From contig DASRGZ010000224.1 of NCBI GenBank assembly GCA_035650735.1, positions 62,001 to 108,351 on the forward strand: a stretch of DNA of 46,351 nucleotides, read 5' to 3'. The notes beneath the pieces are model-generated. The model was not told the DNA's origin. It saw nothing but the letters and a program-made list of their open reading frames with translations, and did not search any database. Below, one piece after another: positions 24,598 through 29,792 of this stretch. The translations under genes were made by a program, and so were the position numbers. Position 1 is the stretch's first letter. Every line of letters begins with the position of its first letter. The DNA is from Chthonomonadaceae bacterium. Its GTDB lineage: Bacteria; Armatimonadota; Chthonomonadetes; Chthonomonadales; Chthonomonadaceae.

Positions 24598-25245
24598 TCA
24601 AGCTTCGAATTCAAACGGCTGGATAGCAAAATCGCCGAGCGTCACCGTGTAGCTGCGCTGTTCCTGGCGGGCCGTAAACGCGACGAGAACCTCGCAGGCG
24701 ATGGAGACCGCCAGCGTGACCAGGTTGCGGGCCAGCGGATAGTCGCAAACGTCTTCTCGCCCTGCCGAGGGAACGCGGTAGATCTCGTTCCAGAGGATCT
24801 CGGCGTAGTCGCCCGCCAGCCCGACATGCAGGCACGGCAAGTTCAAGCTTGTGCAGCAATCCTTGATAATCTGCCGGGAGCGGCTGTTGTCAAAGGTGTC
24901 CACGACCAGGCCGCTGCCGGCCAGGAGTTTGGCCGCATTGGCTGCCGTTAGCTCCTCGGCACGCGCCTCCACGCTCACCCCCAGCGCGCGATAGAGCGCG
25001 TTCGCCAGGATTTTGGCCTTGTACGCACCGATGTCCGAGCGATAGTAGGGCTGCGTGGAGAGATTGCGCTCCTCGATACGGTCGCGGTCAATCACCTTCA
25101 GGCAGGCAAAGCCCTGCCGGGCCAGGCTCTCCGTCAGGTTCGCGCCCAACGCCCCGGCCCCGCAGACCGTTACTGGAAACTCCCGCAGGCGCTGTATCAC
25201 CGCCGCAGAGCGATACAGGCGCTCATGGTAGAGGGCGTCACTCAT
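24598..25245 (-). CDS. ThiF/MoeB/E1-family adenylyltransferase
   Basis: VCGAGALG, IDRDRIEERNLSTQ, DIGAYKA, VVDTFDNSRSR. ATG 25245 overlaps the upstream stop (ATGAGTGA). Confidence 0.9.
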   Translation of the reverse strand: MSDALYHERLYRSAAVIQRLREFPVTVCGAGALGANLTESLARQGFACLKVIDRDRIEERNLSTQPYYRSDIGAYKAKILANALYRALGVSVEARAEELTAANAAKLLAGSGLVVDTFDNSRSRQIIKDCCTSLNLPCLHVGLAGDYAEILWNEIYRVPSAGREDVCDYPLARNLVTLAVSIACEVLVAFTARQEQRSYTVTLGDFAIQPFEFEA

Positions 25246-26095
25246 CCCAATTGCCTTCAAATTGCCCTTGCATCACGCCGACCAGGGATTGCAGGTCGAA
25301 CTTTCGATCTTCGCCGCTCAGGCAGATGCCGGAGCTGATGACGGCCAGGTCGCGCTTGCCGATGGCGGAGCGGTGCTGCTGGCCGTCGCGCGTGGTCCAA
25401 TCCACCAGCCAGTAGTCGCCCCGGTCGTCAAATTCGCGCAGCGCGCCTCCGGCCATCTCCAGCGCCCGGCGCAATCGGGCCTCATCGCGCCGGGGCTGCA
25501 TCAAGGCGGCAAACTCCGCCGCTTGCTGCGCGGCCAGGTCGTAGGCGGTACGCATTTCGGGCGTAAGGCCCTTAAAGCGCAGGGCTTCCGGCAGAGTAAC
25601 CTGCTTTAAGGCTTCCCGCAGCCTGTCGGCGATCTGCGGGTCGGCGCGGCGGTCTATCTCCTCAAACCACCACGCCTGCCCGTCGCCCCGCACGACGGCC
25701 TGCTCGAATCTCTGGCCCTCCATCACCAGATGCACCGGAAACGGCCTGGCCGCGTCTATACGCTGCCGCGCGTCCCCCTCGTTGGCCGGATAGGCGAGCC
25801 AGGTCTGGCTCTTCAAGCGATAGGCCAGCCGCACGCGCAGGGGCAAGAGTCGCCGCAGATATTCCGCCACGAGCGGCAGATCGGCCTCTTCCACCACCTG
25901 CGCCGTCTTCCCCTCGGCAGGTCGGAACAGGCCCCACCCCTCAAATTCGGGCGGATGCGGCGTAAACGTCTGCACCAGCCCCATAATGCGGGCGCGCACC
26001 TTGCCGCCGCGCACGCAGGGCGCCAAAAAGGTCGTCTCGCGAAACTGCGCTTCCTGCGCCGCCACTTTTGCCAGGAGTCTGCGAATGTCGGTCAC
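25238..26095 (-). CDS. Hypothetical protein with C-terminal SGICLSG motif, overlapping the ThiF gene
   Basis: 285-aa ORF from GTG 26095 (AAAGG RBS) with an 8-nt overlap into the ThiF gene; function not recognised. Confidence 0.8.
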   Translation of the reverse strand: MTDIRRLLAKVAAQEAQFRETTFLAPCVRGGKVRARIMGLVQTFTPHPPEFEGWGLFRPAEGKTAQVVEEADLPLVAEYLRRLLPLRVRLAYRLKSQTWLAYPANEGDARQRIDAARPFPVHLVMEGQRFEQAVVRGDGQAWWFEEIDRRADPQIADRLREALKQVTLPEALRFKGLTPEMRTAYDLAAQQAAEFAALMQPRRDEARLRRALEMAGGALREFDDRGDYWLVDWTTRDGQQHRSAIGKRDLAVISSGICLSGEDRKFDLQSLVGVMQGQFEGNWDE

Positions 26096-26144
26096 GGTAT
26101 CAGCCTTTAATCCAGCGGAATATTCGCGCTTGGCGCGCACGCAC

Positions 26145-26226
26145 GGTAATCCCTCCCAACGGTGTGGACGTATCTCCTCGGCAGCAGGCTGCGTGAGATT
26201 GATCCACACGGCTGGGAGTGTCTACC
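26145..26226 (-). mobile_element. 82-bp MITE, copy A
   Basis: Near-identical to 34937-35018 and 41318-41399; imperfect 24-bp terminal inverted repeats GGTA...TACC; flanking direct repeat CGCACGCAC (26136-26144 and 26227-26235). Confidence 0.85.
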
Positions 26227-26472
26227 CGCACGCACAACTGCGCCACCAATTCTGTCGCGGTCGCCGCGCTTTGCAGGAAGGCAAAGTTGATCTCCTCCGG
26301 TTCGACTCTGGCTTCGGCAAGCACCTGGGAGATCCCTGCCTCGCTCCGGCGCATTCAGGGTCATTCAGATTTGGCCCCCACCCCCGACCCTGGCAGTGGG
26401 GACAGAGGTTGAGAGCCGTAACCGATCAATCGTATGCCAGGGGAAGGGAGGGCTTTCGGGGCGCGCACGGCT

Positions 26473-26982
26473 TCAGACGCGCGTGTAGCGCGCCTTCATA
26501 AACTCGTGCCACTCGCCGTTCTCATCCTGGCCGTACGAGGTCCGTATCCGGTAGTCCGCATCGAGGATCTCGATGACATCACGATAGTTGGCCGTCTCTC
26601 CCTCTTTCATCATGTTCGGCCCCACGCAATTCAGCGTCATGACCCTGCCGTCCGCGCTCAGTTCTCCCGTGTATTTCCACAAGTGGGACGACACCGAGGC
26701 GAACATGCATCCCCGATACTCCTTGAACGAGACGTCGTAGCCAAGCGCGGAGTAGTAGGTCATCGGAGTCCCGTCAGGCAGCGTCGCTTTTCCTTCTCCG
26801 ACTGCCCACAGGCCGCCGAGGCCTTTGACGCTTTCGGTGCCTTCCGACTTCTGCTTGGGTTGGCCGGGTGCCATCGTCATTTCCGTCTCGACGCGCCATT
26901 CGCCGACGAGCTGTTGAAGCCATTGGTGCTCCTGAACCGGCTTGGTAGCCATCTCGACGGGTTCCTGGGTTTGGGTGCTCAT
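26473..26982 (-). CDS. DUF1579 family protein
   Basis: EHQWLQQLVGEW, LGGLW, ALGYD, W.EFM pattern; AGGAG RBS. Confidence 0.8.
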   Translation of the reverse strand: MSTQTQEPVEMATKPVQEHQWLQQLVGEWRVETEMTMAPGQPKQKSEGTESVKGLGGLWAVGEGKATLPDGTPMTYYSALGYDVSFKEYRGCMFASVSSHLWKYTGELSADGRVMTLNCVGPNMMKEGETANYRDVIEILDADYRIRTSYGQDENGEWHEFMKARYTRV

Positions 26983-27203
26983 ACACTTCTCCTTCCTGTC
27001 TCTCTACCGCCCCTGCCCTTCCGGCGGGGGATCCATCAAAACCCGCCTCAGGCACGCCAGAGTTGGCTCTGTGTGCCGTAGAAAAGGTGCGCTCTATCCA
27101 GGGCGGACTTAGTGGGAGTGTTGGATTTACTCCACACTGTCGTTACTCCCGGAGACAACGGAGAAGCGGAAACCGGTATGCCGATGAGGTCGGCCTTTAC
27201 AGC

Positions 27204-27249
27204 AAAATGAGGAGAGGAAGCGGGATTGCCCGTCGCCTCCTCTCCTCAT
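27204..27249 (-). terminator. Hairpin/terminator downstream of the TROVE-vWA gene
   Basis: ATGAGGAGAGGA...TCCTCTCCTCAT stem followed by a short T run on the minus strand. Confidence 0.55.
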
Positions 27250-27274
27250 CGCCATGCGACATGGCGCGCCGCCG

Positions 27275-28911: not shown

Positions 28912-29045
28912 GCGCGCAAGTTCGAGAAGCGTTTTTTGCCCGTGCCGACGGGCCTCTCCCCCAGGACGACGGGGGAGACAGGAGTCGAACCTGCTGAACC
29001 ATGTGCCAGATGGTTAGTGTGTAGGCTTCTCCTCCCAGGGCGCGC
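28912..29045 (-). ncRNA. Y-RNA-like unit 2 (permuted tRNA-like insert, anticodon-like GGC)
   Basis: Scaffold plus AACCAU-CUGGCAC-AUGGUU, T arm GCAGG-UUCGACU-CCUGU, closed acceptor CUCCCCC/GGGGGAG, D-like arm. Confidence 0.78.
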
Positions 29046-29089
29046 GCCAGGCGCACGGAGGCGGAACCAGGACAGCAGAGATATAGATC

Positions 29090-29218
29090 TTTCCCGCGCA
29101 AGTTCGAAAAGCCGTTGCACATATCTGACGCTCTGCCGATGAGCTACTATGGTGGGAGTCGAACCCACTACGTTCAGATTACCGAGTGTGTATACTTTCC
29201 GCGTCGGGGCGCGGGAAA
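29090..29218 (-). ncRNA. Y-RNA-like unit 3 (YrlA topology, acceptor stem missing)
   Basis: Scaffold plus an AUCUGA/UCAGAU stem enclosing T arm GUGGG-UUCGACU-CCCAC, then UA-GCUC-AUCGGCA-GAGC D arm. Confidence 0.8.
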
Positions 29219-29245
29219 ACAGACGATAACGCACCAGATAAGAGA

Positions 29246-29399
29246 GCTATTTCGCGCAAGTCCCAAAAGCGGTTCTCACTAAGCGCTCTGCCTCTGAGCT
29301 ACAGGTCCATAGCCAACGGACCTGGCGGGACTCGAACCCGCGACCTCTCCGTTAGCAGCGGAGTGTGTGTACGCTTCTCGCGTCAGGGCGCGAAATAGC
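29246..29399 (-). ncRNA. Y-RNA-like unit 4 (complete circularly permuted cloverleaf, anticodon-like GCU)
   Basis: 12-bp terminal stem; insert CUCCG-CUGCUAA-CGGAG AGGUC GCGGG-UUCGAGU-CCCGC CAGGUCC-loop-GGACCUG UA GCUC-AGAGGCA-GAGC. Confidence 0.83.
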
Positions 29400-29421
29400 C
29401 CCAATCGCAATGCAGGCCAGG

Positions 29422-29585
29422 CCGGTTCCCGCGCAAGTTCGCAAAGCATTGGCACTTTTCCTGGCGTGTCTGCTCTTCCACCACAGAGATAGCACGCTAT
29501 CTCCGGCGGGGCTCGCACCCGCACTCATTGCTGAACCAGGCTGCATTAGGTGTGTAGGCTTTGCCCATCGGGGCGCGGGAAACGG
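29422..29585 (-). ncRNA. Y-RNA-like unit 5 (YrlA topology with a long variable-arm hairpin)
   Basis: Scaffold plus CCUGG/CCAGG stem, UCA-GCAA-UGA arm, T arm GCGGG-UGCGAGC-CCCGC, long closed acceptor stem, GUG..CAC D arm. Confidence 0.75.
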
Positions 29586-29591
29586 GAACCC

Positions 29592-29792
29592 TTAACCGTA
29601 AACCGCTTCAGGGCGGATAATCAGGTTGCCGTTGGGCGCACGATCTATCACATAGGAGACAAACCGGCTGTGCTCGACATCGAAGAAGCGGGCCAGGCGC
29701 TCCTTGATCTCGGCGTCAGTCATCTCCGGCGTTACCTCCAGTTGGCGCTCGTTGAGGTCGAAGGAGCGCCCTTCAAAACGGACATGAACCAT
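29592..29792 (-). CDS. Small 66-aa protein, putative ubiquitin/ThiS-like (beta-grasp) modifier ending in Gly
   Basis: [13 protein letters not shown]...[20 protein letters not shown] before ATG 29792. The fold assignment is inferred from size, beta-beta-alpha pattern and the linked ThiF/E1 gene. Confidence 0.65.

Follow-up and report, generated by a model that had tools for sequence, protein, structure and literature searches.

Why does a gene for a Ro60-like protein lie beside an array of transfer RNA (tRNA)-like RNAs and genes for ubiquitin-like conjugation? The question is raised by a 46,351-nt stretch of DNA (the window; positions 62,001 to 108,351 of contig DASRGZ010000224.1, assembly GCA_035650735.1) from a member of the Chthonomonadaceae, a family of the phylum Armatimonadota. 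An earlier reading, made from the letters alone and here called the sequence-only reading, had described a Ro60-like gene, five structured RNAs and genes for a small glycine-ending protein, a cysteine-motif (Cys) protein and a ThiF-type enzyme. It suggested a Ro ribonucleoprotein (RNP) linked to a cascade of a ubiquitin-like protein (Ubl), an activating enzyme (E1) and a protein resembling a conjugating enzyme (E2). The follow-up analysis shows that this gene set is real, conserved and widespread in bacteria and also present in phage. With regard to its function, we tentatively favor a bait-and-tag system, in which the RNP would bring translation-targeting proteins to a Ubl-tagging cascade.

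All parts are encoded on the minus strand, in the order and orientation originally described: Ubl, RNA units 1 to 5, the Ro60-like gene with a vWA domain, a DUF1579 gene, a hairpin repeat, the Cys protein (the "partner") and ThiF. The last two genes overlap by 8 bp, and the best named homologs come from Chthonomonadaceae (78% and 71% identity). The RNA units share a 5'-3' stem-bulge-stem module, the handle, which is encoded near the Ro gene and carries an exchangeable insert. The core components are:

29592..29792, minus strand: Ubl gene, 66 aa, C-terminus AVYG, predicted beta-grasp fold
29423..29583, minus strand: RNA unit 1, handle pattern with a degenerate permuted tRNA-like insert
29246..29398, minus strand: RNA unit 2, handle with a circularly permuted tRNA, anticodon GCU
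29088..29219, minus strand: RNA unit 3, handle with YrlA-like T arm and D arm
28906..29050, minus strand: RNA unit 4, handle with a permuted tRNA, anticodon GGC
28747..28874, minus strand: RNA unit 5, handle with a normal-order tRNA body, anticodon GAC
27275..28708, minus strand: divergent Ro60, 477 aa, TROVE-like helical part and vWA domain with MIDAS (metal-ion-dependent adhesion site) residues
25238..26095, minus strand: 285-aa Cys protein (partner), two predicted OB-like barrels and an invariant G-x-C-L
24598..25245, minus strand: minimal ThiF/E1 adenylyltransferase, 215 aa, Pfam ThiF E 5e-27, invariant Cys167

Linkage and distribution of the gene set

Absence of the other genes from Ro loci in other genomes had been named beforehand as the finding that would speak against a common system. 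Instead, the four genes and the RNAs recur together. Linkage was counted in the best 80 of 367 confirmed loci from GTDB genomes, which derive mostly from related cyanobacteria, many of them Nostoc, and are not independent. The Ubl gene is present in 67 of these loci, the partner gene in 56 and ThiF in 53; where both flanks are complete, the counts are 62, 51 and 51 of 66 loci. A broader sample is provided by 301 genomes of the window's own phylum, in which Ro and partner were each found in 18 (E < 1e-9). Both occur in 16 of the 20 genomes with either one, and the four exceptions are drafts of at least 280 contigs. Furthermore, 14 divergent stretches from 13 genomes all carry Ubl and partner, and 13 of them carry ThiF, the remaining stretch stopping at a contig end. 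Within the window's family, none of 17 other genomes matched; the unit is therefore patchy and probably mobile. It also occurs in phage: one phage locus (L085) has all four genes amid tRNA genes (16 ARAGORN calls, at least two of which are handle units).

The looser associations in these data bear on the possibility that the Ro RNP and the Ubl cassette are two separate stress functions, merely co-inherited and co-regulated in a mobile island. Such an arrangement would account for the 15 of 66 full-flank loci in which Cys protein and E1 are missing within 6 kb, for the loci L250-L257, in which no RNAs were seen, for a second phage locus (L086), where a Ro homolog is present and the other three genes are absent, and for the highly variable cargo. 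However, where the genes are split within a genome, the partner was found elsewhere in 5/5 genomes tested, with ThiF adjoining it in four, and the phyletic match is near one-to-one. The Ubl gene, moreover, adjoins Ro and not its own E1. In split operons it remains with Ro, and an RNA unit with a sarcin-ricin loop (SRL) insert can remain with the Cys protein (L283); SRL units lie 223-1362 nt upstream of the partner gene in 41 loci. On this balance, two unconnected functions seem quite unlikely.

The divergent Ro60 and the putative tagging proteins

The claim of a TROVE-like vWA protein was supported by profile comparison, although not by Pfam. A profile built from 60 homologs, picked from 150 listed, matches human Ro60 (E 2.4e-18), the phage TROVE protein 9l5y (E 1.7e-14, aligned positions 25-394), Xenopus Ro60 (E 4.3e-14) and Deinococcus Rsr (E 5.7e-8), and these Ro60 matches far exceed those to every other vWA protein. 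The MIDAS residues (DxSxS, T, D) D300, S302, S304, T362 and D386 are invariant across the 60 homologs, and the ESM Atlas returned TROVE clusters at 0.94-0.97. Pfam gave generic vWA matches only for the 477-aa protein; its vWA_Ro60 family was found in 14/60 homologs and its TROVE family (PF05731) in 0/60 at E 0.01, nor anywhere in the genome. As judged from these sequence comparisons, the protein is a divergent Ro60 that is overlooked by Pfam TROVE.

The small protein had been described as a Gly-ending Ubl, in agreement with the data obtained here. Its single-sequence AlphaFold2 model (pLDDT 71.5) has beta-grasp topology, and in a fold search with VIA-align nearly all of the 50 listed rows were beta-grasp proteins, with middling Z values; the top row was a molybdopterin synthase chain (5mpo_B, Z 5.3, rmsd 2.9, 61 residues aligned). 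Glycine ends 166 of the 167 matches in the loci, and the last two residues are [YF]G in 165; this number counts some loci that overlap and one copy of the window. G66 is invariant in 65 sequences and forms a single terminal Gly without extension. According to the model, the 66-aa protein is of beta-grasp Ubl type; the counts of end residues give it an exposed C-terminal Gly. The interpretation of the ThiF protein as an E1 was likewise borne out by an intact set of adenylation residues: the GxGA loop, D53/D55/R56, K76, D116, N120 and C167 are invariant in 22 sequences, the motif CDY[PA] is present in 71/76 with the invariant Cys167 in its C-D-Y, and the E1 profile matches E1 structures in the PDB.

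Beta-grasp proteins and stand-alone adenylyltransferases also serve in sulfur transfer, and a sulfur relay for RNA modification had been considered in the sequence-only reading. Here, the small protein would be a ThiS/MoaD/Urm1-like carrier or would itself become linked to RNA, and the tRNA mimics would be substrates or guides. The molybdopterin synthase chain as top fold match, the best scores of the E1 by hidden Markov models, which fall to ThiF families, and the adjoining tRNA-like substrates are consistent with this role. Sulfur carriers, however, end in Gly-Gly, whereas the Ubl closes with one Gly preceded by an aromatic residue in 165/167 matches and lacks a C-terminal extension that a JAB protease could trim. 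The E1 scores far below all NCBIfam ThiF/MoeB cut-offs (81.8 bits versus 159; 78 versus 275), and its alignment (A5) contains no zinc-binding CxxC pairs. Genes within the arrays (cargo; 433 open reading frames inside 135 loci) were sampled by scanning 49 proteins, namely 28/50 cluster representatives and 21/56 long singletons; no rhodanese, cysteine desulfurase or thiouridylase was among these 49. A sulfur relay is thus disfavored and considered very unlikely.

The partner is predicted to consist of an N-terminal helix, two OB-like barrels, helices, and then a domain of a helix and a beta-meander with the G-x-C-L motif, which we take to be reminiscent of E2 active sites. Its model has a pLDDT of 73.8 and a pTM of 0.44, with residues 254-284 below 50. 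The N-terminal half gave OB matches at Z 5-6, and the top Foldseek rows were the Mpa/ARC N-domain (E 2.7e-3). The motif G[IV]CL is found in 79/81 sequences, and C257 (numbered from 26092), which follows the beta-meander, is invariant in sets of 102 and 69 sequences. No match was obtained in Pfam, NCBIfam or PADLOC and no usable one in the ESM Atlas; longer, fused versions of the protein were sought, with 1 match. While the Ubl and E1 parts of the cascade suggested by the sequence-only reading held, kinship of the Cys protein with E2s was not detected. The protein is graded as a candidate Ubl acceptor (E2-equivalent) on the strength of its conserved residues, not as a demonstrated E2, because a profile comparison with bacterial E2s by hhalign gave a probability of 0.8%. 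In this context, the last helices are missing from short bacterial E2s (PMC11601596; for this and all other cited papers, statements refer to the accessible part of the text). A complex prediction for an E1 dimer with Ubl and the partner's Cys domain (score 0.03, mark 0.32) weighs neither for nor against. Of the PADLOC 2023 models for Bil, Bub and CBASS, the generic E1 part alone matched, whereas Ubl, Ro and partner had no match in this library, which may be older than some of the systems. Domains of the E2 family UQ_con exceed the Pfam cut-off in 32/251 genomes of the window's phylum (L258-L282), often two per contig, and none was found in the window's genome.

Handle RNAs, their inserts and further features of the locus

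The claim that five structured RNAs are present beyond chance was upheld, with unit 1 weak. The units form two repeat families (4 and 5 copies) spaced 158-185 nt, and a two-part handle pattern has exactly 5 matches in the 6.5-Mb genome, all at the array. Compared with dinucleotide shuffles, fold z is -4.1 for unit 5, -3.1 for unit 4, -2.3 for unit 3 and -1.8 for unit 2; for unit 1 it is -1.1 versus mononucleotide shuffles. All five are tRNA-like, and two are circular permutations that retain an anticodon arm. Unit 2 shows the order anticodon arm (GCU), T arm, looped acceptor stem and D arm, and overlapping parts of it match the Rfam models YrlA (38.7 bits, E 5e-6, gathering 69) and tRNA (26.8 bits). 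The minimum free energy structure of unit 4 has four arms: anticodon (GGC), T, looped acceptor stem and a D-like hairpin. Unit 3 matches YrlA across the full model with 28 bits (E 0.0066), under the gathering score of 69. Unit 5 has the normal D-anticodon-T order (Rfam tRNA, 45.8 bits; ARAGORN tRNA-Val(gac)); a free CCA end is absent and the acceptor stem continues into the handle, so that normal-order units lack a chargeable end. The insert of unit 1 shows, by eye, a T-like arm, an acceptor-like hairpin and a D-like arm, and has no Rfam match. An earlier assignment of unit 1 as a mimic of 23S helix H69 was discarded; that match was circular, as the profile contained unit 1, and a 29-sequence profile without it matches nothing in the window.

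The handle extends well beyond this genome. With a relaxed search, whose pattern preselects core letters, 177 loci yielded 461 distinct units. Covariation is seen in the outer stem (first flanking pair formed in 447/458 versus a shuffle maximum of 264), the core pair swaps C-G (283) for T-A (167), and the inner 4-bp helix forms in 459. In a metagenome scan starting from the DNA, 123 loci were found, and most of the long ones with full units carry a Ubl or Ro gene. Stem-bulge-stem is the plan of Y RNAs (PMC12135203). Membership of the RNAs in the YrlA family was nevertheless not upheld: the YrlA 5' motif GNCGAAN0-1G occurs in only 7/461 units, and the best Rfam YrlA (RF02553) scores of 38.7 bits in the window and 43.6 in seven other loci stay below the gathering score.

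The inserts resemble tRNA and ribosomal RNA (rRNA) in both structure and sequence. The 461 units comprise 290 with a T-loop, 64 short ones, 45 of a type combining the SRL with the GTPase-activating centre (SRL-GAC), 29 of an H69 type, 14 of a third class and 19 others, a few of them likely being chance matches. Among 137 normal-order tRNA-like units, 99 have a canonical anticodon arm with 32 different triplets, and 23 of the 99 read stop codons. U33 is kept in 91/93 loops and a purine at position 37 in 90/93, while positions 34-36 vary; because the loop frame is kept in this way, with stop codons among the triplets, the anticodon arms appear to be shapes rather than decoders.

The SRL-GAC insert was compared with a 13-kb rRNA file from two relatives, on which the E-values of its two 23S matches were computed; the helix names H42-44 and H69-H71 are those which we presume to apply to the matched 23S regions. 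At its start, this insert reproduces 14 nt of the 23S sarcin-ricin loop exactly (E 0.0045 alone), and the sequence that follows matches another part of 23S rRNA, some 1.5 kb from the first (E 4.9e-13). By consensus, the insert folds into three helices arranged as in the L11-binding domain (H42-44-like), with two-sided changes at 17/51 pairs, seen in 0/500 shuffles, the structure being derived from the same 12 sequences. The type also occurs in L249, from a distantly placed genome of the same phylum as the window (E 1e-19), and the phage locus L086 has a GAC-like sequence upstream of Ro (5497-5566), a weak match at E 2e-4. No match of an SRL unit to E. coli genomes was found by blastn. The H69 class matches H69-H71 (E 3.2e-6), and its ends are able to pair as an H69 stem, with 6/6 pairs in 15/29 and two compensatory cases; a copy of H67-68 in its 3' part was not supported, as the expected 23S window scores best in just 9/29. 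In a longest-exact-match test, the SRL class reached a median of 14 versus 9 in shuffled sequences, and the H69 class 10 versus 9, which does not separate it. The third class (L120:629, L062:5799 and 12 more) consists of two hairpins with fixed linker letters; it has no Rfam match (seven loci), no significant rRNA match (E 0.9) and none in its own genome. A tmRNA mimic was not confirmed: across 257 loci ARAGORN made a single such call, and the lone weak cyano_tmRNA match lands on a tRNA-like unit. Some cyanobacterial units (L072:4228, L075:5374, L056:5272) carry a short hairpin repeat inside the T-loop. RNA-sequencing contigs cover the array of L055; level, ends and strand are unreadable from them, and the libraries may contain DNA.

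Among the cargo, a 241-aa basic protein lies inside the RNA array of 55/135 loci (e.g. L068:4619-5341), with no Pfam, NCBIfam or PADLOC match, and an L7/L12 paralog in that of 23/135 (e.g. L028:5182-5571, L055:5383-5760). In L118 (757-1983), a full EF-Tu paralog flanked by two handle RNAs lies directly upstream of Ro. Sporadic cargo includes EF-Tu, RNA ligase, Tpt1, a polyA-polymerase head, NADAR and tRNA arrays as well as endonuclease V, an RNase T-like nuclease, Schlafen and toxin-antitoxin genes. In L249 (8400-9700), handle RNAs including an SRL-GAC unit are interleaved with a tRNA array, and an RNA ligase and a methyltransferase follow downstream of Ro. In L250 and L085, JAB genes separate the partner from E1, though the Ubl requires no trimming.

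Inserts and cargo of this kind could also belong to a decoy and repair platform, on which the RNAs absorb tRNases or rRNases or shield Ro-bound RNA while the Ubl cascade regulates the system's own proteins, e.g. in Ro assembly or turnover. The conserved anticodon-loop shape with variable anticodons, the tRNA arrays and RNA-repair cargo and the phage copy L085 would suit such a platform; ROT/TROVE has been called an RNA-repair platform (PMC7824862), and operonic tRNAs have been suggested as sponges for toxin RNases (PMC8421152). For a decoy, however, the sarcin-ricin hairpin alone would suffice; a factor-binding site is the better match for the conserved H42-44 fusion and for the cargo of L7/L12 and EF-Tu. 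Because the SRL is fused to the GAC and accompanied by a private L12, the factor-binding shape seems to matter, and not nuclease sites alone. We rate the decoy platform as rather unlikely.

Further features of the window are:

26473..26982, minus strand: DUF1579 gene, Pfam PF07617, E 2e-49, passenger
26145..26227, no strand: short hairpin repeat (REP/MITE-like), inverted repeat I2, copies genome-wide, passenger
24573..24601, minus strand: sigma-70 promoter consensus, 12/12, 17-nt spacer, predicted promoter of RNA unit 6
24462..24564, minus strand: RNA unit 6, a stand-alone unit of handle and two-hairpin insert, then a U tract

The DUF1579 gene and the hairpin repeat are passengers. The former was rejected as a core gene by its presence in 0/80 related loci of the linkage sample. 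For the latter, the query 26096-26472 gave 146 blastn matches in the genome, on many contigs, with copies of 82-87 bp that are mostly 95-99% identical, including window copies near 35000 and 41350; another, shorter repeat lies near 26380-26420. Unit 6, which lies just beyond the range given in the sequence-only reading and had gone unnoticed there, has an outer stem unlike that of units 1-5, a fold z of -4.86 (0/200 shuffles) and is among 5 genome-wide matches of a generic handle search. Its predicted promoter overlaps the ThiF stop and is the sole 12/12 site (3 sites found versus 1.0 expected). A sixth RNA downstream of ThiF was seen in 0/66 other loci. The window contains no rtcB, as the sequence-only reading had stated, and the gene is encoded on another contig of the same genome. 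Neighboring genes encode a class A beta-lactamase-family protein (23386-24417, plus strand) and an Eis-like GNAT acetyltransferase (22082-23398, minus strand), and nothing ties either to the system. In the loci L252-L257, tRNA-Tyr and tRNA-Ser genes lie upstream of the Ubl gene, some with an attenuator-like leader peptide by eye.

Proposed action and comparison with known systems

In the bait-and-tag system tentatively proposed here, the divergent Ro60 would bind the handle common to all RNAs, and each RNA would present a distinct, uncharged imitation of a translation substrate: a tRNA elbow or anticodon arm or, outside the window in related loci, the factor-binding site of 23S rRNA (sarcin-ricin loop and H42-44) or the H69-H71 junction. 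Proteins docking on these mimics, be they toxins that cut RNA or translation factors and enzymes acting on tRNA, would be kept on the RNP. Both the Ro-handle binding and the capture by inserts are inferred. That Y RNAs tether Ro60 to effectors has been described (PMC4201824). Judging from conserved residues, the E1 would adenylate the Ubl Gly and form a thioester at Cys167, and the Ubl would then be handed to the OB-OB protein's invariant Cys and from there to either the protein that was caught or Ro itself, from which JAB, where present, may take it off. The RNP would thereby substitute for a ligase (E3), and the system would act while translation is damaged. Phage copies and variable anticodons fit a conflict with RNases.

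Several results weigh against the bait-and-tag proposal. Eight loci of one family (L250-L257) keep the four genes with no convincing handle RNA by the patterns used, and the RNAs may thus be dispensable. The linkage counts from the best 80 of 367 GTDB loci come mostly from related cyanobacteria and hence are non-independent, rRNA mimics are absent from the window, and JAB is absent from most loci, the window included. The best PDB sequence match of the Ubl profile is a 37-residue piece of L23 (E 0.008) and no Ubl. In the hhalign comparison of the Cys domain with E2s (E 0.07; a set of 25 rows, 3 of them wrong-frame translations), the GxC motif alone was aligned. The HPN motif of bacterial UQ_con rows is absent from the Cys-protein consensus (alignments A2, A6), and fold searches of this protein listed no UBC row, its model being poor in the Cys region.

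A more specific form, an RNA-programmed Ubl ligase, is doubtful but possible. Here, Ro60 with a swappable library of tRNA and rRNA mimics would serve as E3, the insert would choose the translation factor or ribotoxin to be tagged, and in cyanobacteria one RNA would rebuild a miniature GTPase-activating centre of sarcin-ricin loop, H42-44 and private L7/L12. Bil operons have no predicted E3 in the accessible text of PMC11601596; a target-selecting RNP, if true, would introduce a new principle and might serve as a programmable tool for tagging. Those who discovered the tRNA-like domain in bacterial Y RNAs did not settle its role (PMC4201824). One handle bearing three tRNA arrangements, near-empty inserts as natural controls and rRNA mimics offers a test of this role by insert swapping, and a natural RNA fusing two 23S elements about 1.5 kb apart would represent the factor-binding site in minimal form.

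The system is apparently undescribed. A literature search found no description of the combined Ro60, RNA array and Ubl set; Burroughs and Aravind 2016, the Wolin-lab reviews (2018, 2020) and supplements were outside its reach and could bear on novelty. The operon's terms are absent from the accessible text of PMC10272220, PMC8421152 and PMC7790460. The closest RNA-based relative is bacterial Ro60 (Rsr) with YrlA or Yrn1 (PMC4201824; for Ro60 of a Thermus phage, PMC12135203), likewise a TROVE-like protein with vWA/MIDAS beside stem-bulge-stem, tRNA-like RNAs. The handle RNAs include the YrlA order (T-acceptor-D) as well as the Yrn1 order (D-anticodon-T). In contrast to Rsr/YrlA, the protein described here has no Pfam TROVE match, the handle generally lacks the YrlA 5' motif, and a single handle recurs in as many as six RNAs, whose interchangeable inserts include permuted tRNAs with an anticodon as well as rRNA mimics. 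In place of RtcB/RtcA or PNPase, the partners of Rsr, the core here contains Ubl, E1 and Cys protein.

With Bil, Bub and CBASS Cap2 (PMC10557695, PMC11601596, 10.1101/2023.09.04.556158), the system has in common a terminal-Gly Ubl, an E1, a partner nucleophile, sometimes JAB, and the lack of an E3. It differs by an E1 that consists solely of a 215-aa adenylation domain, with IAD, CYS domain and zinc all missing, and by a partner for which two OB folds are predicted and UBC homology was not detected; JAB is not obligatory. The terms vWA, TROVE and Ro60 have 0 occurrences in the accessible text of PMC10557695 and PMC11601596. The classes of operon described by Iyer, Burroughs and Aravind in 2006 (PMC1779556) are likewise uncharacterised Ubl-E1-E2-like clusters, some of them cyanobacterial, but the accessible part of that paper leaves vWA/TROVE unmentioned and the table rows in that part contain no Ro60 or RNA component. 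ThiS/ThiF and MoaD/MoeB share the beta-grasp protein with a stand-alone adenylyltransferase, in contrast to the single terminal Gly, missing zinc motif and sub-cut-off scores of the present proteins, for which no sulfur-transfer neighbors were found. The cited papers leave Ro60 with Y RNAs and the conjugation operons unconnected. Key tests of membership in YrlA, Pfam TROVE and biosynthetic ThiF fail, and with respect to UBC the HPN motif is absent and homology was not detected. The parts of the system come from two known kinds, and their union, together with the modular RNAs, fits neither.

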